The notes under the pieces: generated by a model | Told to the model about the DNA's origin: nothing | Database searches by the model: none | Seen by the model: the letters and a program-made list of their open reading frames with translations, nothing else | Position numbers and translations under genes: made by a program | Assembly (NCBI GenBank): GCA_964430335.1 | Contig: CAYSEN010000002.1 | Span: 1 to 47,183 of the forward strand | Direction of reading: 5' to 3' | Source: an uncultured Candidatus Saccharibacteria bacterium | GTDB lineage: Bacteria > Patescibacteriota > Minisyncoccia > Phycocordibacterales > SIBU01 | DNA length: 47,183 nucleotides | Part shown: in pieces, positions 11,287 through 34,531 of the stretch | Layout: every line of letters starts with the position of its first letter | Numbering within the stretch: position 1 is the stretch's first letter

Positions 11287-11291
11287 AAATT

Positions 11292-11879: not shown

Positions 11880-11892
11880 ACCTATTTAGCAA

Positions 11893-12530: not shown

Positions 12531-12534
12531 AAAT

Positions 12535-12975
12535 TTACCAGCCGAACTCTGAATAATTGACTCCTTGGTTATAGCAATCTATAAACTGCCCGATGTACGG
12601 AATTACATTTCGCGGCAAATCATCCTTAGAAAACCATGATAAATCATCACATTTATGGGGTTCCGTATTTTTGATTTCACCCTCCCATTTTTCCACAGTG
12701 AAAAACATATCGAGTCTTTCATGATCGCCACAGTGTCGGTGCATCAGATGAACCATTTTTAATTTGCTCGGATCGATAGTAATTCCAATCTCCTCTTTGG
12801 CTTCACGTACCATTGCCTCTCTCGCAGTCTCATTACCTTCCAAGTGCCCTGCAGGAAAACTATAATTTCCATCTTCAAAACCCGTGTTAAATCTTCGAGA
12901 AAATAAAATTTGTTCATTCTTCTCCAACACTAAATACACAGCGGGAGTAATTTTGAATCTTTCTTGTTGTGACAT
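12535..12975 (-). CDS. NUDIX hydrolase (start moved to an internal Met)
   Basis: Nudix box AGHLEGNETAREAMVREAKEEIGI. The track ORF extends to 13035 and would overlap the secA 3' end by 49 nt. The Met at 12975 (MSQQERF...) avoids that overlap. Confidence 0.75.
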   Translation of the reverse strand: MSQQERFKITPAVYLVLEKNEQILFSRRFNTGFEDGNYSFPAGHLEGNETAREAMVREAKEEIGITIDPSKLKMVHLMHRHCGDHERLDMFFTVEKWEGEIKNTEPHKCDDLSWFSKDDLPRNVIPYIGQFIDCYNQGVNYSEFGW

Positions 12976-12986
12976 AGGTAAATTTC

Positions 12987-15500
12987 CTAGGCTCCGTGAC
13001 ATTTCTTGTACTTCTTTCCACTGCCACAAGGACACAAGTCGTTTCTTCCCACTTTGTCATCAGACACTTTCGCGCCAAAAGATTCGCTAGGTAAATTACC
13101 ATTATGTTCAGCATTTGACTCAATGTCCCCCGAACCAAGTATCTCCGCCTGTTCATGAACTTCACGCACTTTCACTGGCTCGATTTTCATAGAGGAACCC
13201 GACACAGCGACAATATTAGGAATCATTTTTACAATCTGATCGGCGGTTACATCTTCCATTTCCTTAAAGAGTCTCAATCCTTCCTTTTTATACTCTACAA
13301 GCGGATCTCTTTGACCATAAGCTCGGAGATTAACAGAACTTCTCATGTAGTCCATGATTTCCAAATGTTCAATCCAAAATGTATCAATCGCCTGGAGCAT
13401 CAATCGTCTTAAACCATTGAAAAATTCCAAATCTCCAACTTGCTTTTTCTTTTCTGAAACCATCTTTGTGAAATCTTCATCACCACCAACCATTTCAAAG
13501 AGAGTTTGTTCCAACTCTTCAACAGAGCCCTGTAAAATATTTCTTCTTCGGCCGTAGATTATTGTTCTTTGATGATTTAAAACATCGTCGTATTCTAAAA
13601 CGTGTTTTCTGGCATCAAAGTTAAAGCCTTCGATTTTAGTTTGCGCAGTTTCGAGTGAACGAGTAATGAGACCATTTTCAATCGCCTCGTCTTCAGGAAT
13701 ATTAAATCGGCCCATCATTTTTTTGATAGTGTCCGAGGCAAAAACTCTCATCAACGAATCATCTAAGGAAACAAAAAATTGAGTTTCTCCAGGATCCCCC
13801 TGTCTTCCCGATCGTCCTCTTAGCTGATTATCAATTCTCCTAGCTTCATGTCTTTCTGTTCCGAGAACAAAAAGGCCTCCTAATTTTCTGATTTCATCTG
13901 AAATTTGTTCTGTTGTTGGATTTCCTCCGAGTTTAATATCAACTCCTCTTCCAGCCATGTTGGTAGCAATCGTAACCGCCCCTTTTCTTCCAGCCTGAGC
14001 AATGATTTCTCCTTCTCGCTCGTGATTTTTAGCGTTTAAAATTTCGTGAGGCACCCCTTCTAATTTCAGATAATCACTGAGCAACTCATTCTTATCAATC
14101 GAAACAGTACCAATTAAAACCGGCTGACCCTTGGCATGTCTTTTTTTCACCTCTCTAGCGATTGCTTTAAACTTTCCGATTTCTGTTTGGAAAATTAAGT
14201 CGTTTTGGTCTATACGGGCGATTGGTTTGTTCGTCGGTACGACCAATGTATCCATGCCGTACACCTTGAAAAATTCTTCAGAAGAAGTCTTAGCTGTTCC
14301 TGTCATTCCGCTTAACTTTTTGTAAAGTCTAAAGTAATTTTGGAAAGTAATCGAAGCCATTGTTCGAGATTCTTTTTGAACCTCAACACCTTCCTTTGCC
14401 TCAATAGCCTGATGTAAACCTTCAGACCATCTGCGACCTGGTTGCAAACGTCCCGTAAATTCATCAACAATCACAACCTGACCTTCCTTAACCACATACT
14501 CCTTGTCTTTATGAAATAAAGCTTTGGCTTTGACTGCCGTCTCTAGGTGATGAACATACTTAATCCCTTTTTCAGTATAGATGTTACCCACTCCTAATTT
14601 TTTCTCCGCTTTTTCTATTCCTTTGTCAGTTAGGGTAATAGCTCGAAGTTTTTCATCAACTTTAAAATCATGATCTACGATAAATGTATCGGCAATTTTT
14701 GCAAAACTAGAGTACAAATCTTCCGAATCAGAAGTCGCCGCAGAGATGATAAGAGGTGTTCGAGATTCATCAATCAAAATTGAGTCTACTTCGTCAACGA
14801 TTGCGAAATTGTAATCTCTCTGTCTTAACTCCTTTTCATCATAGGAAATATTATCTCGAAGATAATCAAATCCAAATTCATTATTAGTTCCATAGGTAAT
14901 ATCTGCACCGTATGCCTCTCTGCGACTTACTGGTCTTAGAAACTCATGTATGACCTTAAACGATCCGACTTCATCACGTTTCTCATCCAATTCTGTATGA
15001 GCAGGATCGTAAATAAAAGAGCTTTCGTGGTTGATTACACCAACTGTTAGTCCTAAAAAAGAGTAAATCTGTCCCATCCAAGCAGCGTCTCTTCGAGACA
15101 AATAGTCGTTTACAGTCACAACATGAACTCCCTTTCCAGTTAATGCGTTCAGATATGCGGGCAAGGTAGCGACCAAGGTCTTACCTTCTCCAGTTCTCAT
15201 TTCAGCGATATTTCCTTTATGCAAAATAATTCCTCCGATCAGCTGAACATCAAAATGTCTTTGACCCAAAGTTCTTCTTGAGGCTTCTCTAACCACAGCA
15301 AAAGCTTCTGGTAAAATTTCATCAAGTGTTCTGCCTGATTCTAACTGGCTTTTAAAAAATTTTGTTCGTCCTGCTAAGGCCTCGTCTGAAAGCGACTGAA
15401 TAGAATTCTCTAAATTATTAATTTCAGTAACTATTGGCAAAAAAGCCTTGATTTTAGACTCATTGCCGTCACCTATAATTTTCTTTAAAAATGAGAGCAT
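12987..15500 (-). CDS. secA: Preprotein translocase ATPase SecA
   Basis: 837 aa with MRTGEGKTLVATLPAYLNAL (Walker A), DEVDSILIDE (DEAD-like) and the C-terminal zinc motif CPCGSGKKYKKCHG. Confidence 0.97.
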   Translation of the reverse strand: MLSFLKKIIGDGNESKIKAFLPIVTEINNLENSIQSLSDEALAGRTKFFKSQLESGRTLDEILPEAFAVVREASRRTLGQRHFDVQLIGGIILHKGNIAEMRTGEGKTLVATLPAYLNALTGKGVHVVTVNDYLSRRDAAWMGQIYSFLGLTVGVINHESSFIYDPAHTELDEKRDEVGSFKVIHEFLRPVSRREAYGADITYGTNNEFGFDYLRDNISYDEKELRQRDYNFAIVDEVDSILIDESRTPLIISAATSDSEDLYSSFAKIADTFIVDHDFKVDEKLRAITLTDKGIEKAEKKLGVGNIYTEKGIKYVHHLETAVKAKALFHKDKEYVVKEGQVVIVDEFTGRLQPGRRWSEGLHQAIEAKEGVEVQKESRTMASITFQNYFRLYKKLSGMTGTAKTSSEEFFKVYGMDTLVVPTNKPIARIDQNDLIFQTEIGKFKAIAREVKKRHAKGQPVLIGTVSIDKNELLSDYLKLEGVPHEILNAKNHEREGEIIAQAGRKGAVTIATNMAGRGVDIKLGGNPTTEQISDEIRKLGGLFVLGTERHEARRIDNQLRGRSGRQGDPGETQFFVSLDDSLMRVFASDTIKKMMGRFNIPEDEAIENGLITRSLETAQTKIEGFNFDARKHVLEYDDVLNHQRTIIYGRRRNILQGSVEELEQTLFEMVGGDEDFTKMVSEKKKQVGDLEFFNGLRRLMLQAIDTFWIEHLEIMDYMRSSVNLRAYGQRDPLVEYKKEGLRLFKEMEDVTADQIVKMIPNIVAVSGSSMKIEPVKVREVHEQAEILGSGDIESNAEHNGNLPSESFGAKVSDDKVGRNDLCPCGSGKKYKKCHGA

Positions 15501-15530
15501 TTCCGTATACTAACATAAAAAAACAATCAC

Positions 15531-15563
15531 AGAAAACACCTCTATCAATTAGAGGTGTTTTCT
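15531..15563 (-). terminator. Hairpin terminator downstream of the 15582-16412 gene
   Basis: Stem agaaaacacctct, loop atcaatt, stem agaggtgttttct. On the minus strand a T-rich stretch follows (gtgattgttttttt). Confidence 0.65.
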
Positions 15564-15581
15564 GATGATTTTGCAAACTAA

Positions 15582-16412
15582 TTATTGATTTGCAATAGGC
15601 AGATGCTCATTTGGCTGTTTAAAGTTTAGATAAAGTACAAGTAGTGTAATAACAAAGAAAGTTGATTTAGAAGTACCTAGGCCAGATATAGCCCCAAGAC
15701 CGTACAATACGGAGGCGGGAGTGACAGCATAAAGGCCCGCAATGTAGAAATTCTTAAAAGTGTAAGGAACCTTAGCGATCTTAGCGGTTACAAGGGCTAC
15801 CAAAGAGGTAATGAGCAAGATTAACAGTACTTGCAAAGTGAATCCTACGAAGAACGCGATGAAGGCAAAAAAGAAAATAGCAATTGAGAATAGCCAGTGA
15901 TAACCAGCTATATAATCGATCCATCCGTAAATCTTTGTCTGATTAATAGAAAAGTTGGGCATTCTGCTTAAGTCAAGAAATTCCAAACGTCCATCATTTT
16001 TAGACATTACAACATAATTCTTGCCCAAAAGAATCTCGGTATCGTAGTTTTTAAAACCGTCTAAACTAAAATCTTTTTTAGTATCAATTACAAGTACATT
16101 TGAATGGATTCTACCCTTTACTGAGATTCCACTTTTATCCTTTATGAAATAAGGTTCAGTAACACTGGTTGAAACATTTCCATTTTTTATATCGATATTC
16201 AACTCTGAAGGATAAAAATCAACCAGCTTTCGCAAATTCTCCTTTGAAAATTCTGGAGCGATGTATACACCAACAACAAATGCCACGGCGACAGACATCA
16301 AACTAACCAGAGACAAAATATATTTAAATGCAACCGAAAATTTTTCGTCTTTGGCACTCTTGTAAAATCCTGGATTGTAGAAAGAGCTTTTAAAAGTTTG
16401 TAAAAAGTTCAT
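15582..16412 (-). CDS. Integral membrane protein, possibly DUF1189-like
   Basis: 276 aa with an N-terminal TM, a soluble middle part and a C-terminal cluster of TM helices. The family guess comes from the N-terminal pattern only. Confidence 0.35.
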   Translation of the reverse strand: MNFLQTFKSSFYNPGFYKSAKDEKFSVAFKYILSLVSLMSVAVAFVVGVYIAPEFSKENLRKLVDFYPSELNIDIKNGNVSTSVTEPYFIKDKSGISVKGRIHSNVLVIDTKKDFSLDGFKNYDTEILLGKNYVVMSKNDGRLEFLDLSRMPNFSINQTKIYGWIDYIAGYHWLFSIAIFFFAFIAFFVGFTLQVLLILLITSLVALVTAKIAKVPYTFKNFYIAGLYAVTPASVLYGLGAISGLGTSKSTFFVITLLVLYLNFKQPNEHLPIANQ

Positions 16413-16445
16413 TTTTTTAAATTAGTTTTTAAGCGCAATGCTATT

Positions 16446-17507
16446 TTACAATTTTTCTACCTCCCAAGCAACCTCGATTCCGGTTTTGTCGAACACTTTT
16501 TGTGCAATATTAACTGCAAAATTTTCAACTTGCTGAGAGTTGGCTCCACCATTATTTACTATGACTATCGGTTGAAATTCATAAAGGCCGACAGGGCCTT
16601 CCGAAAATCCTTTTAAGCCACAAACCTTATCCAAAATCCACGCAAGCGAAACTTTTACCAAAGATTTGTCTATTCCACCTTGATTTGCAGGGAAATTTGG
16701 AATTTCTGGGTAATCTTTTTTAATCTTCTCAAACGACTCATTAGAAATTATCGGGTTTTTGAAAAACGAGCCAGCCGTACCAAAAATTTTTAGATCAGGA
16801 AACTTTTTACTTCTAATTTCCAACACGGCATTTCTTACGGTCTTTAGTGTCGCCGTTTCTGCTTTACCTGAAAAATAATTCGCAAGGTCTTTATACTCTA
16901 AATTTAGTTTGCCAGTCTTTCTCAATTTGAAAGTTACAGACAATACTACAAAATTTTTTCCTTCCTTAGTCTTGAAAAAACTATCTCTATAAGCAAAGTG
17001 GCAATCCTTATTTTCAAAAATTTTTATTCCGCCGTCTCTAGTATCAAGCGTTTCAACAGAGAAAATTGTATCTTTAACCTCAACACCGTACGCACCAATG
17101 TTTTGGACCGGCGTCGCGCCGACTGTTCCGGGAATGCCTGAGAGATTTTCGAGTCCGTATAATTCTCTACTGACGCACGCATCTACAAAACTGTCCCAAT
17201 TTTCGCCAGCTCCAGCCTTAGCTAAAACAAAATCCCCTTCTTCTATAAATTCCAATCCTAAAATCTCATTCTTTATAACCACGCCTTGGAAACCAAGGTC
17301 ACTGACCAAAAGATTTGAACCTCCTCCCAAAACAAAAATCGGAAAGCTGTTCTCGTGCGCGAAGCCTACGGCTTCGCGCACATCTTCAATACTCTTCGCA
17401 CGAAAAAAGTATTTGGCCTCTCCGCCAATTTTGAAAGTTGTGTATTCTCTAAGAAAAATATTTTCCTCGGGTTTAAGCGCCATAAAATTTCCCTGCTTAG
17501 AACACAT
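16446..17507 (-). CDS. murB: UDP-N-acetylenolpyruvoylglucosamine reductase
   Basis: YTTFKIGGEAKYF and the FAD-binding GGGSNLLV match long-form MurB. The true start may be the Met at 17483. Confidence 0.9.
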   Translation of the reverse strand: MCSKQGNFMALKPEENIFLREYTTFKIGGEAKYFFRAKSIEDVREAVGFAHENSFPIFVLGGGSNLLVSDLGFQGVVIKNEILGLEFIEEGDFVLAKAGAGENWDSFVDACVSRELYGLENLSGIPGTVGATPVQNIGAYGVEVKDTIFSVETLDTRDGGIKIFENKDCHFAYRDSFFKTKEGKNFVVLSVTFKLRKTGKLNLEYKDLANYFSGKAETATLKTVRNAVLEIRSKKFPDLKIFGTAGSFFKNPIISNESFEKIKKDYPEIPNFPANQGGIDKSLVKVSLAWILDKVCGLKGFSEGPVGLYEFQPIVIVNNGGANSQQVENFAVNIAQKVFDKTGIEVAWEVEKL

Positions 17508-17560
17508 GTTAACTCAAAAATCAAAAACTCGGTAGTTCGTAAGATGGAACGTAAACTAAA

Positions 17561-17596
17561 AGCCCCGCGGAAGCAAAGCTTCCGCGGGGCTTTTTT
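17561..17596 (-). terminator. Strong GC-rich hairpin terminator after the O-antigen-ligase-like gene
   Basis: A 14-bp stem: agccccgcggaagc, loop aaa, gcttccgcggggct. A and T runs flank it on both sides. Confidence 0.85.
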
Positions 17597-17602
17597 CTAA
17601 AA

Positions 17603-20044
17603 CTACAAACCTTTTCCTGCCCTCACCTGAGAAATCAATTTATCAACCTGAGGTTTTGAAGCTGGATCTAATTCCGATATTTTATTTAGGTCCGCAATGG
17701 CAGCCGTAATTCTCCCCGAAGCCACTTCAATACTAGCTCTGCCCAAGTACAACTGAGTGTTTTTTGGGTTTTGTTTAAGCAAGTAGTTAACCCCTGCCAA
17801 AGCGCTGTCATAATCTCCGGCGTTAAAGAATGCTGAAATAAATCTCTGGTCACCTATAAATGATTCAGGGTTTACTGGTTTTAAAATTTCTCCTGCCTTT
17901 GCAAATTGTTTGTCATAAATCAATCCCAAAGCGTAAATTCTTCTGGCTTCATCAGACGTGGTTTCGAGGTCATAAGCCTGCTTGAAAATTTCAATCGCTT
18001 TTTTGTAATCCTTTTTACCCAAGTAAATTGAACCCAATGAGAACAGAATAGTCTGTTTCTTTTCAGACAATTCGTGTGCCCTGGTTAGCAATTTAACGGC
18101 ATTATCGTAGTCTCCAAAACTTGCATAGAACGATCCGCCAAACAGGAAGTACCTTGCATCTGTAGGCGTTCTGTCCAACTGAATAGTCAATTGTTTCTGT
18201 GCCAATGCAAACAAATCACCTTTGGCCTTCTGATCGACATTTTGCGCGCCAGAAATTGAAACGGCATTCTGCACAATCTGCTCTAGAATTTCCGACCTGC
18301 CTGCTGTGTCATAAGAAAAGGCTTTTTCATAATGTACGACATTAGTAGCAAGTCCTCCCTGTTGGACGCTGATTGCATTTACCAATTCTGTTGATGCCAA
18401 AATTGGAGGGACATTTACAAGGTAGACCACAAACAATGTCGCAATCGAAATAACAGGAATAATTATTCTGTCTCGAGTACCGACATCCATTGCCATTACT
18501 GTTTCCTTCAATTTATTTGGCACTTCCCCAACATGACTGTTGACCCACGAGAGCAAAACAACAAACATAATGTAGCTAGTGATATTGTCGAACACGGTCA
18601 AATTATGGAACATGTATCCAGCCAGAAGTCCCGTCACTAAACTTTTTTCCAAAATCGTGAAATGACCATCTTTTCTCCACAAGTAGTAAATAATGAGACC
18701 AAACAGAGCGAAATACGAAATTACACCTAGTAGACCACCGGCAATCAACCAATCAAAGAAAACATTGTGAGTTCGGTCAAACCACTGCTCGTTTGCATAC
18801 ATTTTAGGGTCGTAATATTTGTTGAATACATAGTTGAAGCTTTCCTGACCCCAGCCAAAAATTGGTTTTTCTTTAAAACCCTGGAAAGCCATATTCCAAA
18901 TCGTAAATCTAGACTGAGTAGTTTTGTCTGAAATAGAAAGATCTGAAAAACGTGACAAGACAGGACTCTTCTTTACCATATCTGTATTTTTTATGGCGTA
19001 GAATCCTCCTACTACCACCACAAGAGCTACAATCATTCCGATTGAAATATTCTGCAAGTTTTTATTTTCTTTATTTAAGAACAAGAAAATAAGCGCTGTT
19101 AAGAATAGTCCGCCAATCAATCCTAGAATCGCACCTCTTGTTGCTGTGTTGTACAAAACATAAATCTGCGAAAGAAATACAAGCGTGTAAAGACCGTACC
19201 TCACCAAAGCCTTAGTTTTCACAGAAAAATTCTTTTCATAAATCCATAGGACCGAAAGTGCTATAAGCCCCACAATTGAAAGCCAAAAAATAGCCATTCC
19301 TAAATTTCCTGTGAAAAAGAATATGCTACTTGCTTTCAGTTCTTCGTTGCTTGGGTAGTGGCTGTAAATTCTGTAAAACTCATTTATTCTTGAAAAATAG
19401 TGATAGAACGGGAACAAAAACGAAAGACCCAGGCCGATAAATCCAGATGTGATAATTGGCTTTGAACTGTGTTCTTCTTTGTCTGACAAAAGCAACAGAG
19501 AAAAGAAAATTAGGAAAACCATGTAAATGGCCAGATATGTAGAGTTACCGAAGGTGGCGTCAATTCTCACACCGCTTTGATGTATATCGAGCTCCTTGTG
19601 TAGCTGAAGCAGAGAGTAACCGTAAGTAAAGATTCCAACCCCGACAAAAGTTTGGAATAAATTTTTCCAAAGCTTTTTGGTCATCACGCTACTTAGAACG
19701 ACAAAAAATGCAAACAAATGTGCCAATGTGACCCAACCTTCCATTCTTTCGTAGTTAGACCAAAAACTCTTGAAGGCGTTTGGACTTAAAAGATCTGAAA
19801 TGAAAATTGTTCCTATAAATATAGCAAACACATAAAACAATTTTGAAACTTTTGGAAAGACAGAATGGTCTCGAATTGCCAAAATTAGCCAAAGTCCAGT
19901 AACGATCTCAACCAAAATCCTAAAAGCGAAATTCTTACTCGTGATAAACGGAAAGAAAAGACTGTTAAATACGAATAAACAAATAAATGGTATTAAAAAT
20001 ATTCCTCCCAAAACGAGGTAACGTAAAATTTTATTAGTTTGCAT
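17603..20044 (-). CDS. O-antigen ligase/polymerase-like (Wzy_C) polytopic membrane protein fused to C-terminal TPR repeats
   Basis: The first ~530 aa hold many TM helices with a large loop (TRGAILGLIGG...), typical of the Wzy_C/O-antigen ligase family. The last ~250 aa are TPR-like (YDNAVKLLTRAHEL..., KKDYKKAIEIFKQAYDL...). Confidence 0.7.
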   Translation of the reverse strand: MQTNKILRYLVLGGIFLIPFICLFVFNSLFFPFITSKNFAFRILVEIVTGLWLILAIRDHSVFPKVSKLFYVFAIFIGTIFISDLLSPNAFKSFWSNYERMEGWVTLAHLFAFFVVLSSVMTKKLWKNLFQTFVGVGIFTYGYSLLQLHKELDIHQSGVRIDATFGNSTYLAIYMVFLIFFSLLLLSDKEEHSSKPIITSGFIGLGLSFLFPFYHYFSRINEFYRIYSHYPSNEELKASSIFFFTGNLGMAIFWLSIVGLIALSVLWIYEKNFSVKTKALVRYGLYTLVFLSQIYVLYNTATRGAILGLIGGLFLTALIFLFLNKENKNLQNISIGMIVALVVVVGGFYAIKNTDMVKKSPVLSRFSDLSISDKTTQSRFTIWNMAFQGFKEKPIFGWGQESFNYVFNKYYDPKMYANEQWFDRTHNVFFDWLIAGGLLGVISYFALFGLIIYYLWRKDGHFTILEKSLVTGLLAGYMFHNLTVFDNITSYIMFVVLLSWVNSHVGEVPNKLKETVMAMDVGTRDRIIIPVISIATLFVVYLVNVPPILASTELVNAISVQQGGLATNVVHYEKAFSYDTAGRSEILEQIVQNAVSISGAQNVDQKAKGDLFALAQKQLTIQLDRTPTDARYFLFGGSFYASFGDYDNAVKLLTRAHELSEKKQTILFSLGSIYLGKKDYKKAIEIFKQAYDLETTSDEARRIYALGLIYDKQFAKAGEILKPVNPESFIGDQRFISAFFNAGDYDSALAGVNYLLKQNPKNTQLYLGRASIEVASGRITAAIADLNKISELDPASKPQVDKLISQVRAGKGL

Positions 20045-20139
20045 GTTGGAATGATAACATGCTCATTTCCAATAGAAAATAGTAAACCGGTTGCGACAGA
20101 TTTTAGAGAGTAAATCAATAGTAGAGACAGTGGTCAAAA

Positions 20140-20808
20140 CTAAACCCTTTTGCTGATTTCCCTCTCTGCTCTTGCCCAATCTTCCGGCTCGTCAATATCA
20201 ACCGCCTTTTCTTCAGACATCAAGAAAATTCCTATTTTTCCGCCGAGTCGATTTTTATGTTTTTTAAAAATATTTTTGTTGGTTAGATAAAATGCTCCGT
20301 TTTCATGAACCACACCTTCAAAGTCCTGTCTGCGTGGTCTTTTTTGATAATCGTAATTGAGTGGTTTTCCTTTTACAGTCCAAAAGAACTTTTTGAACAA
20401 CACTCCTGTTAGAAGAGAGTCGTACTTCTCTTCTACAAATTTTTCTATCGCACTGTCTAAATCTTCAGTAGTAGTCAAAGGTGAAGTGGCCTGAATTAAA
20501 TTTAAAATATCGAAATCTACATTTTCTGAAAAATGCTTCATGACAGATTCGGTCGAAGATGAATCTTCCGCAAGCTCCTTAGGTCGATCGATGACTTTTA
20601 CCGGAAGGCCCAAAGATAAAACTATTTTCTTTATCTCCTCGTCATCGGTTGAAACCCAGACCTCGTCTATATATTTTGAATCTGAGGCTGATTTTAATAC
20701 CCAAAAGCACAGAGGTTTACCTGCAAGCTCCTTAATATTCTTTCTAGGTATAGATTTTGATCCTCCGCGAAGTGGAATGAGACTTACGATTTTTTTGCCC
20801 TTAATCAT
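20140..20808 (-). CDS. Acylneuraminate (nonulosonate) cytidylyltransferase family protein (NeuA-like CMP-sugar synthetase)
   Basis: IPLRGGSKSIPRKNIKELAGKPL and IQATSPL are CTP_transf_3 hallmarks. The start is set at the Met at 20808, because the track start at 20853 overlaps the divergent promoter. Confidence 0.8.
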   Translation of the reverse strand: MIKGKKIVSLIPLRGGSKSIPRKNIKELAGKPLCFWVLKSASDSKYIDEVWVSTDDEEIKKIVLSLGLPVKVIDRPKELAEDSSSTESVMKHFSENVDFDILNLIQATSPLTTTEDLDSAIEKFVEEKYDSLLTGVLFKKFFWTVKGKPLNYDYQKRPRRQDFEGVVHENGAFYLTNKNIFKKHKNRLGGKIGIFLMSEEKAVDIDEPEDWARAEREISKRV

Positions 20809-20846
20809 TTTGGCAGTATAACATATTATTTGTAATCTGGCACCTT

Positions 20847-20875
20847 TTGACACCTTTTGACACTTCTGATAGAAT
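20847..20875 (+). promoter_or_regulatory. Near-consensus sigma70-type promoter for the glycan operon. The predicted TSS lies at or next to the ATG at 20882.
   Basis: TTGACA at 20847-20852, a 17-nt spacer, then TAGAAT at 20870-20875. The ATG begins 7 nt after the -10 box. ccttttgaca is tandemly duplicated. Confidence 0.6.
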
Positions 20876-20881
20876 CAGCCT

Positions 20882-21130
20882 ATGACAGAAGAGATAAAAC
20901 CTCACGCGGTTTATACAACCAGTGAGACCCAAGAAATTCTAAAAATCAGTGAAAGCACTATTAAAAGACTCTTGAAAAAGGGCCTTATTAGAGCCAACAA
21001 AATTGGTGGTCAATATAGAATTCTTGGCAAGGAGCTTCTACACATCCTCTCCCCTGACCTAGAAAAGGAGGCCACTAAGTCATACAGACAACTAAAAAGA
21101 AAGGTTGTACGTGAGATTAAAACTTGGTAA
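20882..21130 (+). CDS. Small excisionase/MerR-type HTH DNA-binding protein
   Basis: YTTSETQEILKISESTIKRLLKKGLIRANKIGGQYRI matches the HTH_17 pattern. 82 aa, first gene of the plus-strand block. Confidence 0.7.
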   Translation: MTEEIKPHAVYTTSETQEILKISESTIKRLLKKGLIRANKIGGQYRILGKELLHILSPDLEKEATKSYRQLKRKVVREIKTW

Positions 21131-21192
21131 AAAGTTAGAACATTACAAGGAGAGATCGTGTTATACTTTGAGACACTTTTAATAACAAAAAT

Positions 21193-22308
21193 ATGAAAAA
21201 AGACAAAAAACCAGCAAAGAAAGGGACAGAGGCAATCAAGAAAGCTTTTATTACAGGAATCACGGGTCAAGACGGTTCTTATCTTGCCGAATTACTCCTA
21301 GACAAAGGTTATGAAGTTCATGGACTAATCAGAAGAGCTTCAACATTTAACACAGGTAGAATTGATCATATTTACTTAGACCCTCACACCAAAGGTAACA
21401 AACTTTTCCTACACTACGGAGATCTCTCTGACGCAAGCAATCTAAAAAAATTAATTTTTGCTATCGCACCTGATGAAGTCTACAACCTCGGTGCACAGTC
21501 ACACGTAAAAGTATCCTTCGATATGGCTGAATACACGGGCGACATCACAGGTCTTGGAGCACTAAGAGTTTTGGAAGCAATTAAAGATTTTCAGGCTCAT
21601 GGTGGTAAAAAAATAAAATTCTACCAAGCGTCATCAAGCGAAATGTTCGGCTCAGCCCTACCACCACAAAACGAGAAGACTCCCTTTGCGCCACGCAGTC
21701 CATATGGAGTGGCTAAAACTTTCGCATACTACGGAACTGTAAATTGCCGTGAATCATATGACGTATTTGCCGTAAACGGAATTCTTTTTAATCACGAAAG
21801 TCCGAGACGAGGAGAAACCTTCGTGACACGAAAAATTACTCAGGCTGTAGCTCGAATCAAACTCGGTCTTCAAGACAAACTCTATTTAGGTAACCTAGAC
21901 GCCAAAAGAGATTGGGGTCATGCTCGCGACTATGTAGAAGCAATGTATCTCATGATGCAACTTCCAAAACCCGAGGATTTCGTAATCGCTACCGGCGAAC
22001 AACACACTGTCCGAGAATTTTGCGAACTAGCGTTTAAAGAAATCGGCATAAAAATAAAATGGCATGGCAAAGGTTTAGAAGAAAAAGGTATTGATTCTGA
22101 AACTGGTAATACTCTAATAGAAATCGACGATAAATATTTCAGACCAGCAGAAGTAAATTCTCTGATGGGCGATGCCACAAAAGCCTACAGCAAACTTGGT
22201 TGGAAACCGAAAACAACCTTCAGCGAACTGGTAAAAGAAATGGTAGCCTCAGACCTAAACGAGGAGTCCAAGAAACACATCTTGGCACAAAGCGGAAAGA
22301 AAAAATAA
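21193..22308 (+). CDS. gmd: GDP-mannose 4,6-dehydratase
   Basis: [42 protein letters not shown] and [17 protein letters not shown] are classic Gmd blocks. Confidence 0.95.
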
Positions 22309-28480: not shown

Positions 28481-29134
28481 ATGCCAAAAAAGTCAGACAA
28501 AAACTCAAAAAAATCGGTTGAGAAAAAACAGTACAAAGCTGTTCTCTTTGACCTTGATGGTGTTTTGGTAAACATGCCAGACGGTCACTACGAAGCACTC
28601 AACAAAGCTTTGGCACTTTTCGGTGCCCAGATCGGTCGCGAAGAGCATCTTCAGTATTTTAACGGCCTACCAACTCGTAAAAAATTAGAGGAGTTGGAAA
28701 ATCAGGGTCGCCTACCTAAAGGCCTCCGAGAATTTATTAACAACGTAAAACAAAAGCACACCAAAGATATTATTCCAAAATATTGCCCACCAGACTATTC
28801 AAAAATCATTTTACTTCAACATCTTAAAGACAAGGGCTACACACTTGCCTGCTGTTCAAACTCAATCAAAGAAACTCTTCATCTAATGCTAAAATCCTCA
28901 CACCTATTTGATTTCTTTGATTTAATTGTCGGCAACGATGAAGTGCAAAATCCTAAACCTCACCCAGAAACATATCTATACGCCTTTCAAAAATTGGGAG
29001 TAGAACCTCACGAATGCATCATCGTAGAAGATGCTCCGCCTGGAATCGCGGCCGCAAAAGCTAGTGGAGCAACCGTCATCGAAGTACGAGGAGTTGAAGA
29101 TGTGAACTTGGCCTTATTCGAAAATTTAATTTAA
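28481..29134 (+). CDS. HAD-superfamily phosphatase (beta-phosphoglucomutase-like subfamily IA)
   Basis: AVLFDLDGVLV is motif I, CSNS is motif II, and IIVEDAPPGIAAAKASG covers motifs III/IV. Confidence 0.8.
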   Translation: MPKKSDKNSKKSVEKKQYKAVLFDLDGVLVNMPDGHYEALNKALALFGAQIGREEHLQYFNGLPTRKKLEELENQGRLPKGLREFINNVKQKHTKDIIPKYCPPDYSKIILLQHLKDKGYTLACCSNSIKETLHLMLKSSHLFDFFDLIVGNDEVQNPKPHPETYLYAFQKLGVEPHECIIVEDAPPGIAAAKASGATVIEVRGVEDVNLALFENLI

Positions 29135-29137
29135 CCT

Positions 29138-29458
29138 ATGAAAATTCTAAAACTAAAGGATTTTACGAGAGGTTGGATGATTGGTGATTTTACACCAGCA
29201 ATATTACAAACAAAAAATTTTGAATTCGGTGTCAAAGACTACAAAGCCGGAGACCAAGAAGATGCGCATCTGCACAAAGTAGCAACGGAATTTTCGGTTA
29301 TCGTTTCAGGTGAATTTAAAATGAACGACCAAATTCTTAAAAAAGGAGATGTCTTAGTGATGGAACCAAACGACATTGCAAACTTTAGTTGTATTAGTGA
29401 TGGTTCTACTGCGGTCATAAAGGTGCCGTCCGTTAAAGGAGATAAATATTTAGTATAA
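29138..29458 (+). CDS. Small cupin-fold protein
   Basis: 106 aa with HLHKVATEFSVIVSGEFKMNDQILKKGDVLVMEP, which resembles the cupin motifs. Confidence 0.55.
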   Translation: MKILKLKDFTRGWMIGDFTPAILQTKNFEFGVKDYKAGDQEDAHLHKVATEFSVIVSGEFKMNDQILKKGDVLVMEPNDIANFSCISDGSTAVIKVPSVKGDKYLV

Positions 29459-29460
29459 AA

Positions 29461-29485
29461 AATTCTACAGTGGATCTGTAGAATT
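29461..29485. terminator. Hairpin closing operon 1; also serves the convergent small minus-strand ORF
   Basis: Stem aattctacag, loop tggat, stem ctgtagaatt (10 bp). taaaaa lies on its 5' side, which is a T-run on the minus strand. Confidence 0.6.
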
Positions 29486-29490
29486 ACGAA

Positions 29491-29784
29491 TCAGAAACTG
29501 CTTGCAAACACAAGGAGTGCATACAGGAAAATTGGCAAGGATAGCCACCTGACTATCTTAATCGCGAGGGAAAAACTGGTAACACCTCCTCCTTTAGGAT
29601 CGGGTGCAAAAGTGATGGCAAAAGAGAGTATGGACAGAACTGCCATCGTTGCACTCAAAAGCCGAAGCTCAGAAGAGTCCCGTCTCAAATTTGGGATCGC
29701 GAAAAATATCATGACGTTGACGACACCGATAAAAAAACAGACCGGTGTCTTGTGTTTACCAACCCAAGTGATTTGTCTGCGCAT
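29491..29784 (-). CDS. Small hydrophobic protein, unknown function (intermediate GC)
   Basis: 97 aa with about 3 hydrophobic spans. No family recognised, so coding status is uncertain. Confidence 0.35.
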   Translation of the reverse strand: MRRQITWVGKHKTPVCFFIGVVNVMIFFAIPNLRRDSSELRLLSATMAVLSILSFAITFAPDPKGGGVTSFSLAIKIVRWLSLPIFLYALLVFASSF

Positions 29785-29906
29785 AAAAATCTAGGCTCGG
29801 CAAATTTTAATATAAAAAGAAAACAAGGTCGATAAATTTTCATAAAAAATGAGCATTAGACAATAGTAATTGAAAAAAACCAAAACTTTTACTCAAAAAT
29901 TTGCAA

Positions 29907-29937
29907 GAAAAAAGAGCGATCGAATGAACGATCGCTC
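29907..29937 (-). terminator. Rho-independent terminator of the high-GC IMPase-like gene
   Basis: Minus strand: gagcgatcg, loop ttcatt, cgatcgctc, followed by tttttt. Confidence 0.8.
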
Positions 29938-29965
29938 CGTGAATTGACTGAAAGAACTGATAGGG

Positions 29966-30892
29966 CTATTGGCCCTTGGACGCCCTGACGGCGCGGACCA
30001 AGACATCGAGTGTCTCTTGGTTGTTGGCCGTAACCAGGATGTCGTAGTCCATGACTGACAGCGGGTTGCACTCGGTGAGAGTGCCGTTGTCTTCGACTCG
30101 GAATGCCGTCGCACATCCGCCGGCCTGGAGGACGAGAAGGACCGGGCAGACGTCCCAATAACCGCCGATTGCAGTAGTGATGGCGCCGACGGCTCCCTTG
30201 CCGCCGTGAGCGATGAGCGCATGATGAATCCCGTTACTTCCGAGCATCAACTTGCCGGCCTTCTGGTCGATCAGACCTTCGAGTCGATTGAGTTCGGACC
30301 GCGTCAGAATCTCCCGCCCATCGCGCTTGAAGCCGGGATAGCAGTCGGTGAACACCCGGGTCTTCGAGCTAATTGGCTCCGATGACACACTGCATACTGA
30401 CATGTCATCAGGCGTCGGTTCACTGCCGTCCTCGGAGTAAGCCATTACCATAGTCCCAACGCCCTTCTGGCCGACCCAAATCTGGCCGGTCTGGGGGTTT
30501 CCCACCACACAGAAGAACACCTCCTTGCATGACCTGCTGTAGGCCGCGGCGATGACCGTCGAGGTTCCTGCCCCAACTGCAAACGGCATGGAGCCGTCGA
30601 GAGCATCGAGGCATACAATGATGTCGCTCGTAGGACCCTCAGGTCCAGTCTCCTCGCCGTGCACCAGAACCCCAGGAATTGTCAGCAGGATTTTCTTCCC
30701 CGCAGCCTCGCTGGCCTTGTCGGCCGGAAGGGCCGCCAAGGTGCCGTCGGACTTGCTGCCAAGTGCGTCGATACACCGACCTCGTTGGAACCTTCGTACG
30801 ACAGCCATGGATCGGAGAACAGCCCCGACCACCTGACCACGGCTGTCGCGGTTGAATTCACGATCGTATGGGACCACTTCTGTTGATTTCAT
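29966..30892 (-). CDS. Inositol-monophosphatase/FBPase-superfamily phosphatase-like protein with high GC
   Basis: HGEETG is a metal-binding acidic pair. CLDALDGS is a variant of the DP[IL]DGT motif. YWDVCPVLLVLQAGG is a variant of WDxAAGxxxxxEAGG. Hand-counted G+C in 30001-30240 is 50, 63, 62 and 63% per 60 nt. Confidence 0.6.
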   Translation of the reverse strand: MKSTEVVPYDREFNRDSRGQVVGAVLRSMAVVRRFQRGRCIDALGSKSDGTLAALPADKASEAAGKKILLTIPGVLVHGEETGPEGPTSDIIVCLDALDGSMPFAVGAGTSTVIAAAYSRSCKEVFFCVVGNPQTGQIWVGQKGVGTMVMAYSEDGSEPTPDDMSVCSVSSEPISSKTRVFTDCYPGFKRDGREILTRSELNRLEGLIDQKAGKLMLGSNGIHHALIAHGGKGAVGAITTAIGGYWDVCPVLLVLQAGGCATAFRVEDNGTLTECNPLSVMDYDILVTANNQETLDVLVRAVRASKGQ

Positions 30893-31038
30893 TTGTTTTT
30901 TCTACCCGATAAATCGGGCATTTCGAACCGTTTTGGAACCCCTGTTGCCCTCAAGCGAGTGCAAAAACGTCAAAGATCCCCTAAAACTAACCTTTGACAA
31001 TTTAGCACAAATCTGGAAATATGTCAATATATTTAGCC

Positions 31039-31084
31039 ATAAATTAGCGCCTAAATGTGCTAGAATAGTAACCAATAAATTAGC
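31039..31084 (+). promoter_or_regulatory. Candidate operon-2 promoter: an extended -10 box flanked by two exact ATAAATTAGC repeats
   Basis: TGcTAGAAT lies at 31058-31066. ATAAATTAGC occurs at 31039-31048 and 31075-31084. Further TTAGCC motifs lie at 31033-31038 and 31091-31096. The ATG is at 31103. Confidence 0.45.
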
Positions 31085-31102
31085 CGTTAATTAGCCAAAA
31101 AC

Positions 31103-31930
31103 ATGAAAATCATCTTTCCAATGGCAGGTCTCGGTAGTCGTTTTGCAAAGGTTGCAGATAAAAATTCTGAATATCTAAAACCTAAGCCATTTATAAATGT
31201 TAAAGGCTTTCCTATGATCCGCTGGGCCACAGGTTCACTTCCCTTTTTTGAGCACGCCGGACAAAAAGTAACTGGCAATCTTCGTGTCACTCCAAAAGAT
31301 GTGGCCTTCATTATTTTGAAGGAGCACAACGATGCATATCAAATGGAGAAGCAACTGAAGGAAATTTATTCAGACGATATCACTGTTATTGTGATTGATA
31401 AGCTCACTCGTGGTGCTTCAGAAACTGTTCTTAAGGCCAAGGACTTTATCAATCCTGAAGAAGACCTCCTGCTTTCTGACACCGACCACTTTTTTGATGG
31501 CCGGGGTTTCGCCGATTTAATTGCAAATAAAGACGCGGACACTGCGGGAATCATTCCTGTCTTCCGCGCTCGAAATGATGGTATTCCAAAGTGGAGCTAC
31601 ACCTTGACTAAGCCTGACAGCAATCACATTTCTCAGGTGGCAGAAAAAAGTCGTGAACTTATGGAAAAAGGAGCTTATGCAAATATTGGCGCCTACTATT
31701 TTTCAAAAGGAAAATATTTTATTGCAGAAGCTGAGAAAGCTATCGAAAGAAATGAAAGAGCTGGCGATCCTGTTAAAGGAGAGTTTTATATCGCACCTCT
31801 ATATCAAAAATTGCTTGATCAAGGAATGAAATTGCAGGCCGCTGTAATTCCCGAAATGTGGGGATTGGGTACACCGGAAGATTTAGAATTTTTCTTGGCT
31901 AATTGTCCAATTAACAAACCATCATTTTAA
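31103..31930 (+). CDS. Sugar-phosphate/alcohol-phosphate nucleotidyltransferase-like protein (GT-A fold)
   Basis: The N-terminal IIFPMAGLGSRF...KPFINVKGFPMI signature, plus GLGTPEDLEFF near the C-terminus. Confidence 0.6.
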   Translation: MKIIFPMAGLGSRFAKVADKNSEYLKPKPFINVKGFPMIRWATGSLPFFEHAGQKVTGNLRVTPKDVAFIILKEHNDAYQMEKQLKEIYSDDITVIVIDKLTRGASETVLKAKDFINPEEDLLLSDTDHFFDGRGFADLIANKDADTAGIIPVFRARNDGIPKWSYTLTKPDSNHISQVAEKSRELMEKGAYANIGAYYFSKGKYFIAEAEKAIERNERAGDPVKGEFYIAPLYQKLLDQGMKLQAAVIPEMWGLGTPEDLEFFLANCPINKPSF

Positions 31931-31946: not shown

Positions 31947-32702
31947 ATGAGTAAAATCCTAAACATCGTAGTTCCAATGGCCGGTCGTGGCACTCCTTTT
32001 AAGGAGGCAGGTTACGCTTTTCCTAAAGCACTTGTCGACATCAAAGGTAAAACCATGATCGAAGTGGTAACTGGAAATCTAAAACCAAACTGCGAGCATA
32101 AATTTATTTTTGTCTGCCAGAGAGAACATTATGAAAAGTACGACCTATATAACATTTTCAAAAATGCTACGGACAATCAGTTTGAAGTGGTCCAGATAAA
32201 TGGTCAGACTGAGGGCGCAGCCTGTACAGTGCTGACCGCGGTTTCTCATATCAACAATGACAACGACCTGATTATTGCAAACTCAGACCAATTTATAGAA
32301 ACCGGTATAAATGATTTCATAAAGGAAGGACGAAAAGATGACAAAGACGGACTGATCATGACTTTCAAGGCCAGTCACCCAAAGTGGAGTTATGTTCGTA
32401 CAGATGATAGCGGACGAGTAATTGAAGTCGCTGAGAAAAAAGTGATTTCCAAAAACGCCACTGTGGGAGTTTACTATTTCAAAAAAGGAAGTGATTTTGT
32501 GGAATCAGCTCAATCAATGATTCACAAAAACATAAGACACAACAACGAGTTTTATGTTTGCCCTACTTACAATGAAATGATTCTTCGCGGTAAAAAAATC
32601 TACACCAAAGAAATTTCTGCTGAAAAAATGCACGGACTAGGAACACCAGAGGAGCTCAATCATTTTTTGAAAGAATTGGAAAAAGGAAAAATCAAAATTT
32701 AA
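31947..32702 (+). CDS. Nucleotidyltransferase-like protein, paralogue of the preceding gene
   Basis: IVVPMAGRGTPFKEAGYAFPKALVDIKGKTMI, KWSYVRTD (compare KWSYTLTK in the neighbour) and GLGTPEELNHF. Confidence 0.6.
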   Translation: MSKILNIVVPMAGRGTPFKEAGYAFPKALVDIKGKTMIEVVTGNLKPNCEHKFIFVCQREHYEKYDLYNIFKNATDNQFEVVQINGQTEGAACTVLTAVSHINNDNDLIIANSDQFIETGINDFIKEGRKDDKDGLIMTFKASHPKWSYVRTDDSGRVIEVAEKKVISKNATVGVYYFKKGSDFVESAQSMIHKNIRHNNEFYVCPTYNEMILRGKKIYTKEISAEKMHGLGTPEELNHFLKELEKGKIKI

Positions 32703-32703: not shown

Positions 32704-33612
32704 ATGATAAGAGAAAATTACGTGAGAAATGAAAATAAAATTGAACGTGAGCCGGGAGAGGTTGCTGTAATCACCCACCGAGGACTAGACCCAGAAAAAC
32801 CGAACTACTACATGGAGAGCTCGCGAGAAGCTTTTGCTGACCAAATTTCTAGAGGTTTCGGTCTTGAATTTGATTTACAATTTACCAAGGACGGTAAAAT
32901 TGTTGTGCTACACGACAAGGATCTTTCAAGAATTACCAATGGTGCTGATACTAGAAAAATCGGAGAAGTTAATTTTGACGAATTGCTAGACATGGATTTC
33001 AACGGTTACCACATCACCTCATTCGGAGCACTTCTTCAAATGATTCAATCGAATCCAAACGGGAAATCACTAAACGCCATCCACTTTAAACACGGGGTGC
33101 AGACTAAAGAACAGATGGATCAGATACTGAAAGAATTTGAAGGAGCTAACCCTGAACATTTCATATTTTTTGACCTAAAAACAGAATCAGCCAAATATCT
33201 AAAAGAAAAAGACGGCAGACTTCACCTCGCAGCATCAGTCGCACATCCACATGACATCGAAAGATATAATTCGGCAGTCGGTGGAACATTACTACCCCTT
33301 TCCGAAGTTATAGATAATAGGGATGTTTTTGATTGGGTTTGGCTAGATGAATGGGATTTGTCCGACAAAGACGGAGGTCAAAAGTCACTCTACAGCGAGG
33401 AGACTTTCAAAATTGCTAGAGACGCTGGTCTAAAAATTGCCTTAGTCACACCGGAACTTCACGGCACTTCTCCAGGACTACTTGGTGGCGAAGCCCACCC
33501 TGACGCAGGAAACCGCGAAAAATTAAACAAAAGATTAAAAGAAATTTTTGAGCTTAGGCCAGACGCCATGTGCACAGATTACCCCGACTACGTAAAAAAT
33601 TTAAAAAAATAA
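32704..33612 (+). CDS. Glycerophosphodiester phosphodiesterase (GDPD) family protein
   Basis: ITHRGL...ESSREAF...GFGLEFDLQFTKDGKIVVLHDKDLSRIT matches the GDPD HRG / E-x-D / HD pattern. Confidence 0.7.
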   Translation: MIRENYVRNENKIEREPGEVAVITHRGLDPEKPNYYMESSREAFADQISRGFGLEFDLQFTKDGKIVVLHDKDLSRITNGADTRKIGEVNFDELLDMDFNGYHITSFGALLQMIQSNPNGKSLNAIHFKHGVQTKEQMDQILKEFEGANPEHFIFFDLKTESAKYLKEKDGRLHLAASVAHPHDIERYNSAVGGTLLPLSEVIDNRDVFDWVWLDEWDLSDKDGGQKSLYSEETFKIARDAGLKIALVTPELHGTSPGLLGGEAHPDAGNREKLNKRLKEIFELRPDAMCTDYPDYVKNLKK

Positions 33613-33613: not shown

Positions 33614-34531
33614 ATGCTAGATTTCGCAAAAAAAACACTTTGGAATATTGGTTTTAAATTTGGCAGATTTATCACCATTCACACCAGACCAGCAAAAGTA
33701 GATGGTCTGCCTTTCATTGGATCAAAAAATCCAATCGATGAATCCTGCGCCATCATCATGCAGGGTCCGATTAAGCATGAGTATAATTTCACCTACGAGA
33801 CAGTGCGTTTCTACCTTCAACACTACCCTTCTGCCACAATTATCATTTCAACCTGGGAAGGCGAAGACACAAGCGCTATAGAAAGTCTCAAAGCTGAAAA
33901 AGTGAAAATTTTAAAATGCGCTAAACCGGTTCATCCAGGACCTTGTAATGTAAACATGCAAATTACAAATACTAAAGCCGGAATGGATGAAGCTGTCAGA
34001 CTTGGACTTAAATACTCTCTCAAAACTCGCGCCGACCAAAGAATGTACGGTATCAACTGTCTTGAATTCATGATTAACATGATCGAACAATTCCCTGTTT
34101 TGGGACCAACATCTCAGAACAAGAGAATTCTTGCGACTAACACCGGCACAAGTAAACACCGAAACTATCATTTTTCTGATTTGTTTATGTTTGGAACTGC
34201 GATCGACATGCAGACTTATTGGACTCCGGAAATAATTACTGACAAATCAATCAATCCTAGAGATTTTTTGGCAGAGGGATATTTGTTTACTCAGTTTTTG
34301 ACACACACAGGCTGGAAAATAAAAGACACGCTAGAAGATTTTATTGAAGCATTAGGCGAGAGATGTGTCGTTGTAGACAATGAAGACATCGATGTATACT
34401 GGCCGAAATATGCAGCACAGCAACGTGAATACCGATTGAAAAATTACGTAAGACCAGCTATCGAAATCACCTTCAAAATATGGATGAATGAAGGTTTGGT
34501 TCCCGCACTTAAAAAATATGGAAAAAAATAA
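33614..34531 (+). CDS. Conserved hypothetical glycan-locus protein (possibly WavE-like LPS synthesis family)
   Basis: 305 aa, soluble, tightly coupled to its neighbours. The WavE guess comes only from context and a faint recollection of the IIMQGPI...IIISTWE pattern. Confidence 0.3.
   Translation: MLDFAKKTLWNIGFKFGRFITIHTRPAKVDGLPFIGSKNPIDESCAIIMQGPIKHEYNFTYETVRFYLQHYPSATIIISTWEGEDTSAIESLKAEKVKILKCAKPVHPGPCNVNMQITNTKAGMDEAVRLGLKYSLKTRADQRMYGINCLEFMINMIEQFPVLGPTSQNKRILATNTGTSKHRNYHFSDLFMFGTAIDMQTYWTPEIITDKSINPRDFLAEGYLFTQFLTHTGWKIKDTLEDFIEALGERCVVVDNEDIDVYWPKYAAQQREYRLKNYVRPAIEITFKIWMNEGLVPALKKYGKK

Follow-up and report, generated by a model that had tools for sequence, protein, structure and literature searches.

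An apparent recombination hot spot at a GC-rich IMPase-family gene in a surface-glycan module of candidate phyla radiation bacteria

Surface-glycan loci supply the closest described parallels to the gene examined here. In replacement glycan islands, and in genes that hitch-hike with O-antigen or capsule loci (E. coli gnd among them), deeply diverged alleles occupy a fixed position in a conserved backbone, exchange proceeds by homologous recombination within the surface-glycan cluster, and assemblies break there (PMC4033161, PMC6696633). We find the same features in a 47,183-nt stretch of DNA from an uncultured Candidatus Saccharibacteria bacterium (hereafter the window), at a single minus-strand gene (29966-30892) for a predicted 308-aa phosphatase of the inositol monophosphatase (IMPase) superfamily. 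Unlike the described islands, the variable unit in the window is one cytoplasmic enzyme gene, and even sub-genic blocks of it, while the neighbouring glycosyltransferase and nucleotidyltransferase are 99% identical. The composition differs as well: O-antigen islands are usually AT-richer than their genome, whereas the variable gene of the window is far GC-richer than its own, a trait kept across phyla of the candidate phyla radiation (CPR). What is new is a persistently GC-rich recombination hot spot, as we read it, at the IMPase gene of CPR bacteria. Our joint reading, which we hold with slightly better than even confidence, is that the predicted phosphatase is an old member of the CPR glycan module, GC-rich throughout its family, and encoded at a recombination hot spot where exchange holds the GC content.

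The composition of the gene recalls work on recombination-associated GC enrichment, the hypothesis of GC-biased gene conversion (gBGC; Lassalle et al. 2015, PMC4450053; contested in PMC11879095). As in those reports, a recombining gene has raised GC, most strongly at third codon positions (GC3). The reports describe small genome-wide averages; the window, in contrast, shows a shift of +35 GC3 points in one gene, with sharp borders and conserved across CPR phyla. A literature search returned no paper relevantly linking IMPase with CPR bacteria, and for hypervariable glycan loci of CPR bacteria it returned only analogues from other bacteria.

For the protein itself, the described relatives are the SuhB, IMPase and FBPase enzymes (for example, E. 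coli SuhB, 2QFL; Aquifex aeolicus, 2PCR and 9MMI; and M. tuberculosis HisN, 5YHT), with which it has in common the fold and, in variant form, the metal motifs (GEE, DxxDG(S/T) and WD). Unlike the known SuhB, IMPase and HisN proteins, it falls in a subfamily of its own. At E<=1e-30 an exhaustive profile search gave 144 representative clusters, and nearly all of the named members come from CPR bacteria. The subfamily adds the conserved motifs GSNG.H and ITTAIGG, and its context is always a glycan module and not a histidine, inositol-lipid or rRNA antitermination context. Phosphatase steps of nucleotide-sugar pathways are carried out by GmhB (ADP/GDP-heptose), KdsC (CMP-Kdo) and IMPase (di-myo-inositol-phosphate synthesis), and in these pathways, as in the window, the phosphatase gene lies beside the activating nucleotidyltransferase in a glycan cluster. 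Such phosphatases are HAD-type except in the inositol-phosphate case; the window pairs an IMPase-type and a HAD-type enzyme with two nucleotidyltransferases, and no inositol-phosphate synthase was seen in it.

Composition and conservation of the IMPase gene

The window has an overall GC content of 38.6%, and the break at the IMPase gene is abrupt. An earlier sequence-only reading of this DNA had counted 50, 63, 62 and 63% G+C in the 60-nt lines of 30001-30240, and on recount these values are exact (50.0, 63.3, 61.7 and 63.3%). The GC-richest 927-nt segment (0.599, at 29925) compares with a mean of 0.385 (sd 0.034) over all segments of that length, which never exceed 0.489 outside the gene. The shift is seen in a 100-nt profile, and maximum-likelihood change-points fall at 29963 and 30850, enclosing a block of GC 0.606 that coincides with the coding sequence, just as the sequence-only reading had assigned the shift to a single minus-strand gene. 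The open reading frame (ORF) has GC 0.595, with 0.615, 0.476 and 0.696 at the first, second and third codon positions, and lies about 4.5 sd from the mean of the 44 long ORFs of the window (GC 0.39, sd 0.045; GC3 0.365); the other 43 stand at 38% GC and GC3 0.36. Written in host codon usage, the same protein would have GC 0.466 and GC3 0.348, and of the 0.21 GC excess about 0.08 (roughly 40%) comes from amino-acid composition and about 0.13 (roughly 60%) from synonymous choice. The GARP residues make up 0.30 of the protein (host mean 0.20) and the FYMINK residues 0.19 (host mean 0.34), both beyond the range of host genes, and the shift to G/C-ending codons is present in nearly every amino-acid class. 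The long alternative-frame ORFs within the gene, which the sequence-only reading had rightly tied to high GC, are no longer than those in synonymous-codon shuffles, and none is conserved among alleles; they are a by-product of GC. An overlapping or antisense gene as the source of the high GC was considered and rejected, no frame being open beyond the shuffle expectation in 13 alleles.

By profile score, motifs and modelled fold, the product is a predicted member of the IMPase superfamily, and neither HisN nor the archaeal FBPase/IMPase. It matches Pfam PF00459 over residues 57-303 at 52 bits (cutoff 27), a domain also carried by all 31 relatives found in a first-round homologue search of 5.8 billion proteins, and it contains the variant motifs HGEE, LDALDGS and WDVCPV that had been noticed from the sequence. 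Across 32 family members the metal-binding residues E80 and E81 are at least 90% conserved, and D96, D99, G100, W246 and D247 are invariant. An AlphaFold2 model (pLDDT 90.7, pTM 0.91) has the two-domain alpha-beta-alpha-beta-alpha sandwich fold of the superfamily, and its top 50 Foldseek matches in the PDB are without exception enzymes of the IMPase, SuhB, HisN or bisphosphate nucleotidase kind (probability 1.00, E as low as 3e-17), with TM scores to the target of up to 0.86-0.89 for the IMPase/SuhB fold and just 15-21% identity to solved structures. The best NCBIfam match, the HisN equivalog TIGR02067, scores 41.2 bits, far short of its cutoff of 275, and the archaeal bifunctional FBPase/IMPase model NF009321 scores 21.7 bits where 264 would be needed. 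Between alleles dN/dS is 0.15-0.19, and the gene is predicted to encode a working Mg-dependent sugar- or polyol-phosphate phosphatase.

The gene sits in a module that recurs well beyond the window. Upstream in coordinate order lie a HAD hydrolase of the beta-phosphoglucomutase family (28481-29134, +), with orthologues in L005, L007, L009, L011, L014 and L033 (related loci and contigs compared with the window are labelled L001-L053), and a 106-aa cupin (29138-29458, +; Cupin_2 at 24 bits, below cutoff), of which a 106-108 aa orthologue adjoins IMPase in L001, L005-L009 and L025. On the other side come two paralogous nucleotidyltransferases, 34% identical to each other, namely the divergent NTP1 (31103-31930, +; PDB 4EVW, 36.6 bits) and NTP2 (31947-32702, +; a sugar/alcohol-phosphate nucleotidyltransferase), then a GDPD-family protein (32704-33612, +) and a WavE-family glycan biosynthesis protein (33614-34531, +). 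Every contig with enough context places IMPase beside NTP1, NTP2, GDPD, cupin and HAD, and often WavE. IMPase is opposite in strand to NTP1 in every locus that has NTP1, so that the "antisense insertion" described by the sequence-only reading is better seen as conserved architecture. The patchiness of a recent island was not found, as the gene occupies one and the same place in all related loci with context. Over 55 locus pairs IMPase identity follows NTP1 identity (Spearman 0.79), which shows long co-residence. On this comparative evidence we read the gene as an old, fixed resident of a conserved surface-glycan module.

Named carriers are Parcubacteria, Sungiibacteriota/Sungbacteria, Falkowbacteria, Saccharibacteria and Saccharimonadales; the only others are two metagenome-assembled genomes (MAGs) labelled Gammaproteobacteria (L020, L021), which may represent either mis-binned CPR DNA or true spread beyond CPR. 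Their members, too, are GC-rich relative to flanks (0.60 vs 0.43 and 0.59 vs 0.52, respectively). The flanking proteins of the window are nearest to Parcubacteria GW2011_GWA2_47_16 (75-82% amino-acid identity), which supports the earlier suggestion of a CPR-like genome.

Synteny also bears on function. The most likely role, as inferred from synteny, would be a phosphatase step in which IMPase removes phosphate from an intermediate, either on the route to a nucleotide-activated sugar or polyol for decoration of the surface glycan or just after that compound is formed. The conserved neighbourhood is consistent with the functional tie between the phosphatase and the nucleotidyltransferase/GDPD module that the sequence-only reading had proposed. 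We also tried to assign a pathway from the module partners and rejected the attempt: for both NTP1 and NTP2 the only match is PDB entry 4EVW, itself uncharacterised, the GDPD protein resembles generic glycerophosphodiesterases in its N-terminal third, and no specific chemistry follows from these matches.

High GC is, judging from the homologous loci, a trait of the whole family and no mark of recent foreign origin. In 28 of 29 loci the GC content of the IMPase gene lies above that of the remainder of its contig. In a set of 18 de-duplicated loci with background GC of 0.32-0.63, it is the top-GC ORF in 13 and among the top two in 17, with a mean excess of +0.105 in GC and +0.121 in GC3 (Wilcoxon p=2e-5 and 8e-4). 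The amino-acid share of the excess is about constant across the family and the GC3 share varies, being highest in the lowest-GC hosts (+0.35 in the window, +0.28 in L005 and +0.27 in L027) and 0.07-0.14 in several mid-GC hosts. The closest homologues lie in CPR-type glycan modules of low- and mid-GC kin (hosts of 33-52% GC) and are similarly GC-rich, the very outcome that the sequence-only reading had named as counting against its own proposal of a recent acquisition from a high-GC donor.

The GC-rich state extends to neighbours of IMPase in other loci: GDPD and an unknown 221-aa gene in L005 (7776-10556), GDPD in L011 (8867-13150), a DUF218 gene in L021 (9995-11523), and, in L027 (7297-8855), a 116-aa orphan that forms with IMPase an island of 55% GC in an 847-kb contig of 31% GC. 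GDPD is GC-rich only where it adjoins IMPase, and has background GC when it follows NTP2, as in the window. The window itself holds a second gene-sharp GC-rich island, a 226-aa ORF of GC 0.526 (46418-47098, -), antisense to the adjacent plus-strand operon, which shows the same syndrome as IMPase. It has no Pfam or NCBIfam match and only two homologues in 5.8 billion proteins: one in L042, with 77% identity against 94.5% for the neighbouring oxidoreductase and with GC 0.50 against 0.37 for the rest, and one in L043 (GC 0.56 vs 0.49). BLAST matches it to none of the GC-rich companion genes. Homology among those companions was likewise considered and rejected, as they are heterogeneous (DUF218 in L021; one unknown family in L005, L006 and L011; the orphan in L027). 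Unrelated GC-rich neighbours, the position effect on GDPD and the second GC-rich gene together point to position or turnover, and not to the needs of one protein.

Alleles and mosaic blocks

The window carries what we call allele A. Allele C, in L001 (a contig from another sample), lies between flanks that are 96-100% identical to those of the window at the DNA level, with HAD, cupin and NTP1 proteins 100, 99 and 99% identical, respectively. The two IMPase genes, in contrast, have 69% amino-acid identity, a dS of 1.46 and a dN/dS of 0.15. DNA identity falls between about 29951 and 30941, diverging from near the start codon and recovering exactly at the stop codon. The ratio of IMPase to NTP1 protein divergence for this pair is 26, as compared with a median of 1.34 over the 55 pairs. 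At least three alleles occupy one near-identical backbone, A, B and C being 100, 94 and 69% identical in amino acids to the window protein between flanks of 97-100% identity; the 5' flank of allele B (L013) matches that of the window at 98.8% identity, yet dS is 0.31 within the gene.

Alleles A and B differ in blocks, four of which (numbered 2-5) make up the coding sequence on the minus strand. Block 2 (aa 1-56; 30726-30892) has 66% DNA identity between A and B, with dS saturated and dN 0.22. Block 3 (aa 57-202; 30288-30725), which holds the GEE and DxxDGS motifs, is 99.5-99.8% identical between A and B and 73% between A and C. Block 4 (aa 203-268; 30089-30287), with GSNG.H, ITTAIGG and WD, returns to 82% A/B identity (dS 0.82, dN/dS 0.07), and block 5 (aa 269-308; 29966-30088) is again 99.2% identical between A and B, and 67% between A and C. 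Blocks 3 and 5 together hold about two A/B differences in about 560 nt (dS about 0.01), while in blocks 2 and 4 dS lies between 0.8 and saturation, at omega 0.07-0.2; the longest identical A/B run reaches 256 nt, and none of 20,000 permutations exceeds 131. Every allele and every block is GC-rich. The low dN/dS of the divergent blocks, together with near-zero divergence in the stretches between them, excludes in-place hypermutation and indicates exchange among old functional alleles. Six assemblies from different samples carry allele B with the same block pattern (allele A is found in two), so the mosaic is no assembly artefact.

The history of the gene also appears discordant with that of its flanks. 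In distance comparisons, L009 has the flanks closest to those of the window (75-82%) but an IMPase only 43% identical, and its IMPase is nearer to those of L011 and L014 (50-51%); L041, for its part, carries a window-clade allele on an L009-type backbone. We read these patterns, from sequence comparison, as those of a recombination hot spot at which both whole alleles and sub-genic blocks have very recently been exchanged laterally. This retains one part of the "foreign" character ascribed to the gene by the sequence-only reading. The composition is atypical for the host, but no distant donor clade was found and there are no mobility signatures at the borders of the gene. Six of ten independent backbone contigs (L047, L049-L053) end at or just before IMPase, a sign of co-assembled strain variation at that spot. 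One of these, L049, was considered as a fourth allele and rejected, its divergent tail being contig-end noise.

The pattern singles out one cytoplasmic enzyme as the part that varies in a CPR glycan module whose other members are conserved, which suggests allele-specific substrate choice, and hence surface-glycan variation, in host-attached organisms. As a separate observation on the same backbone, NTP2 is called at 241 aa in L044 (5665-6390) and L048 (3656-4381) as against 251 aa in the window, and in L045 and L046 the identity of NTP1 drops to 95-97% close to contig ends; these hint that the NTP1/NTP2 junction is a second variable spot, though a milder one.

Explanations of the high GC

Our best guess at the cause of the GC excess is recombination-linked maintenance. 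GC-rich, old functional alleles and blocks are swapped into an almost clonal AT-rich backbone, with breakpoints at the gene ends and in conserved internal stretches, and constant homologous replacement would keep the gene from drifting to the AT-rich composition of its host. The alleles would circulate among CPR relatives, most of which have a higher GC content than this genome, and recombination or repair would probably add to the effect through a bias toward GC. In 11 of 14 bacterial groups, GC3 is higher in genes that recombine (PMC4450053), which supports the direction of the proposed effect. The polarised differences between alleles A and B (29 S>W and 23 W>S, with outgroups near saturation and mostly in imported blocks) show, as a weak test, no apparent decay toward AT, where relaxation to host GC3 is estimated to give about 5:1 S>W:W>S.

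Several observations weigh against this account. Reported effects of recombination on GC amount to a few points, far below the +0.35 in GC3 seen here (PMC4450053), and a later study credits the link between recombination and GC to selection efficacy, not to biased conversion (PMC11879095). The excess in GC3 is about zero in L006, L019 and L033, and L014 lies below background. Window-clade alleles have GC3 of 0.64-0.71 in this 38% GC host, as compared with 0.63 in L002 and 0.58 in L041, both from mid-GC hosts; GC3 that is highest in the 38% GC host is not what simple import from GC-richer relatives predicts. Homologue searches returned no near-identical donor allele outside this backbone. Most of the A/B differences are imported blocks and not in-place mutations, and the outgroups used to polarise them are near saturation. 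Finally, the substrate and pathway step of the phosphatase are read from synteny only.

A bolder version, to which we give rather low credence, is that one position in CPR glycan clusters is pushed GC-ward by a recombination-coupled process and held there against AT-biased mutation, affecting IMPase, its neighbour and perhaps the 46418-47098 gene. If true, this would amount to a gene-scale, phylum-spanning natural case in bacteria of GC-biased gene conversion, or of repair with an equivalent bias, with a GC3 shift of 10-35 points. Whatever its cause, the locus offers a caution for annotation: an abrupt island of high GC in an AT-rich genome, which textbooks would take for recent foreign DNA, is here read as an old resident gene. 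It also offers a compact test system for the dispute on whether recombination raises bacterial GC, made up of a single gene of 0.9 kb in several alleles, a backbone that is almost clonal, and many publicly available samples.

The best-surviving alternative, which we nevertheless regard as unlikely, is pure re-import: repeated replacement from GC-richer CPR relatives, too recent for the copies to have ameliorated and with no GC bias involved. The recent replacement of alleles and blocks fits this directly, most loci with the family have a background GC of 0.42-0.62, above that of this genome, and loci with higher background GC3 tend to have a smaller GC3 excess (Spearman -0.45, p=0.06). However, the gene stands above background even in genomes of 46-52% GC (L009, L016, L017 and L021), and the alleles of the window clade are GC-richest in the lowest-GC host. 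Recombination would, moreover, need homologous AT-rich flanks, which GC-rich donors would lack, and the missing near-identical donor counts here as well.

A little less probable still, in our estimation, is gene-specific selection on synonymous sites, in which G/C-ending (rare) codons or a structured mRNA set expression and allele turnover is a separate matter. The agreement of the GC change-points with the coding sequence, the shift across amino-acid classes, the peak of the GC3 excess in the lowest-GC hosts and the balance of polarised substitutions all speak for such selection, and the 5' region (30700-31000, minus strand) folds better than shuffled sequences. That fold signal is weak, however (z = -1.9), and no Rfam match accompanies it; the GC3 excess is small, absent or negative in the four loci named above; unrelated neighbours are GC-rich as well in L005, L011, L021 and L027; and a second, unrelated gene of the window has the same syndrome.

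We consider very improbable a recent single acquisition, not yet ameliorated, from a high-GC donor outside CPR such as the actinobacterial host favoured by the sequence-only reading. The gene-sharp compositional break and the GARP-rich protein beyond the host-gene range are what such an event would leave, and the best NCBIfam match is of the actinobacterial HisN type, although at 41 bits against its cutoff of 275. The gene is, however, present, syntenic and GC-rich across many CPR lineages; apart from the two MAGs labelled Gammaproteobacteria its named homologues are from CPR bacteria and none is actinobacterial, the nearest structures are generic SuhB/IMPase enzymes at their 15-21% identity, and neither sequence nor fold shows an actinobacterial affinity. 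The borders of the gene have no flanking repeats and no bordering integrase, and no tRNA was detected in the window. A mobile vector as the reservoir of GC-rich copies was rejected on similar grounds, with IMPase relatives absent from IMG/VR contigs, the phage collection and PLSDB plasmids.

In-place targeted hypermutation, whether by retroelement-like diversification or by damage from head-on transcription, is equally hard to credit. Divergence is indeed limited to one gene that is antisense to its neighbours, but the differences come in blocks with stretches of near-zero divergence between them, omega is 0.07-0.2 within the divergent blocks, the same mosaic allele is stable across six samples, and no template-like repeat was found in 29300-31300 (the rest of the window was not scanned for reverse transcriptase). 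Least of all do we credit an assembly chimera joining a GC-rich fragment of another organism to the contig: many backbone contigs do end at or near the gene, but breaks are expected where strains differ, the same arrangement is found in about 20 other loci, and independent assemblies from different samples (L001, L013, L044-L046, L048, L050 and L052) agree with the window base for base at both junctions, which excludes the misassembly that the sequence-only reading had raised.

Control elements and the wider window

The IMPase gene would be transcribed divergently from NTP1, from its own predicted promoter to its own predicted terminator. The promoter-like site, a consensus match only, lies about 107 nt 5' of the start codon (30999-31027, -; TTGACA, 17 nt, TAAATT, with an extended TG) in the divergent intergenic region common with NTP1. 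In the same region, at 31017-31095, we observed three direct copies of a ...ATAAATTAGC-type motif, which could be operator sites for a shared regulator. Just 5' of the ribosome-binding region, alignment reveals a leader hairpin CCCGATTTATCGGG (CCCGAT-TT-ATCGGG; 30905-30918, -), which is part of the centroid fold; in allele C it reads CCCGACTAAGTCGGG (CCCGAC-TAA-GTCGGG), with one pair altered on both sides and the stem kept. The terminator that the sequence-only reading had assigned to the gene is present as an intrinsic-terminator-like hairpin with a T-run (29913-29938, -), and is the same in alleles A and C, which places it outside the variable segment. No RNA element reaches Rfam gathering thresholds in the window.

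Beyond the terminator lies a small hydrophobic ORF of 97 aa and GC 0.456 (29491-29784, -), separated from the cupin gene by a hairpin (29461-29485) that is terminator-like on the minus strand. The sequence-only reading had correctly noted its intermediate GC, but had it preceding the IMPase gene, whereas it sits downstream, and it is doubtful as a gene. It has no Pfam or NCBIfam match and no homologue in related loci; among near-identical strains its only two differences are both nonsynonymous, and a 1-bp indel breaks the frame in L001, where flanking DNA is about 98% identical. The sequence evidence thus supports it poorly as a real gene. We also asked whether the 507-bp spacer at 29459-29965 is a relic of the GC-rich GDPD or unknown 221-aa gene of L005, and rejected this, a blastx search against all locus ORFs being empty.

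Further along the window, a 644-aa fusion (34488-36422, +) joins a NeuB domain of the sialic-acid-synthase type to an SAF domain and a xylose-isomerase-like TIM barrel, and a CMP-sugar synthetase (20140-20808) and a Wzy_C/TPR protein (17603-20044) are also encoded in the window; from their domain content, these indicate a putative nonulosonic-acid-containing glycan. The long ORFs at 4445-20808 are all on the minus strand and those at 21193-46379 nearly all on the plus strand. This orientation switch at about 20800-21200 could be a replication-related strand-bias boundary, in which case both GC-rich genes would be head-on to replication. Cumulative GC skew drops until about 31 kb and is then flat. 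Finally, a 224-aa ORF at 3726-4400 (+), about 25 kb from the IMPase gene, carries an IS200-like Y1 transposase domain (36 bits).

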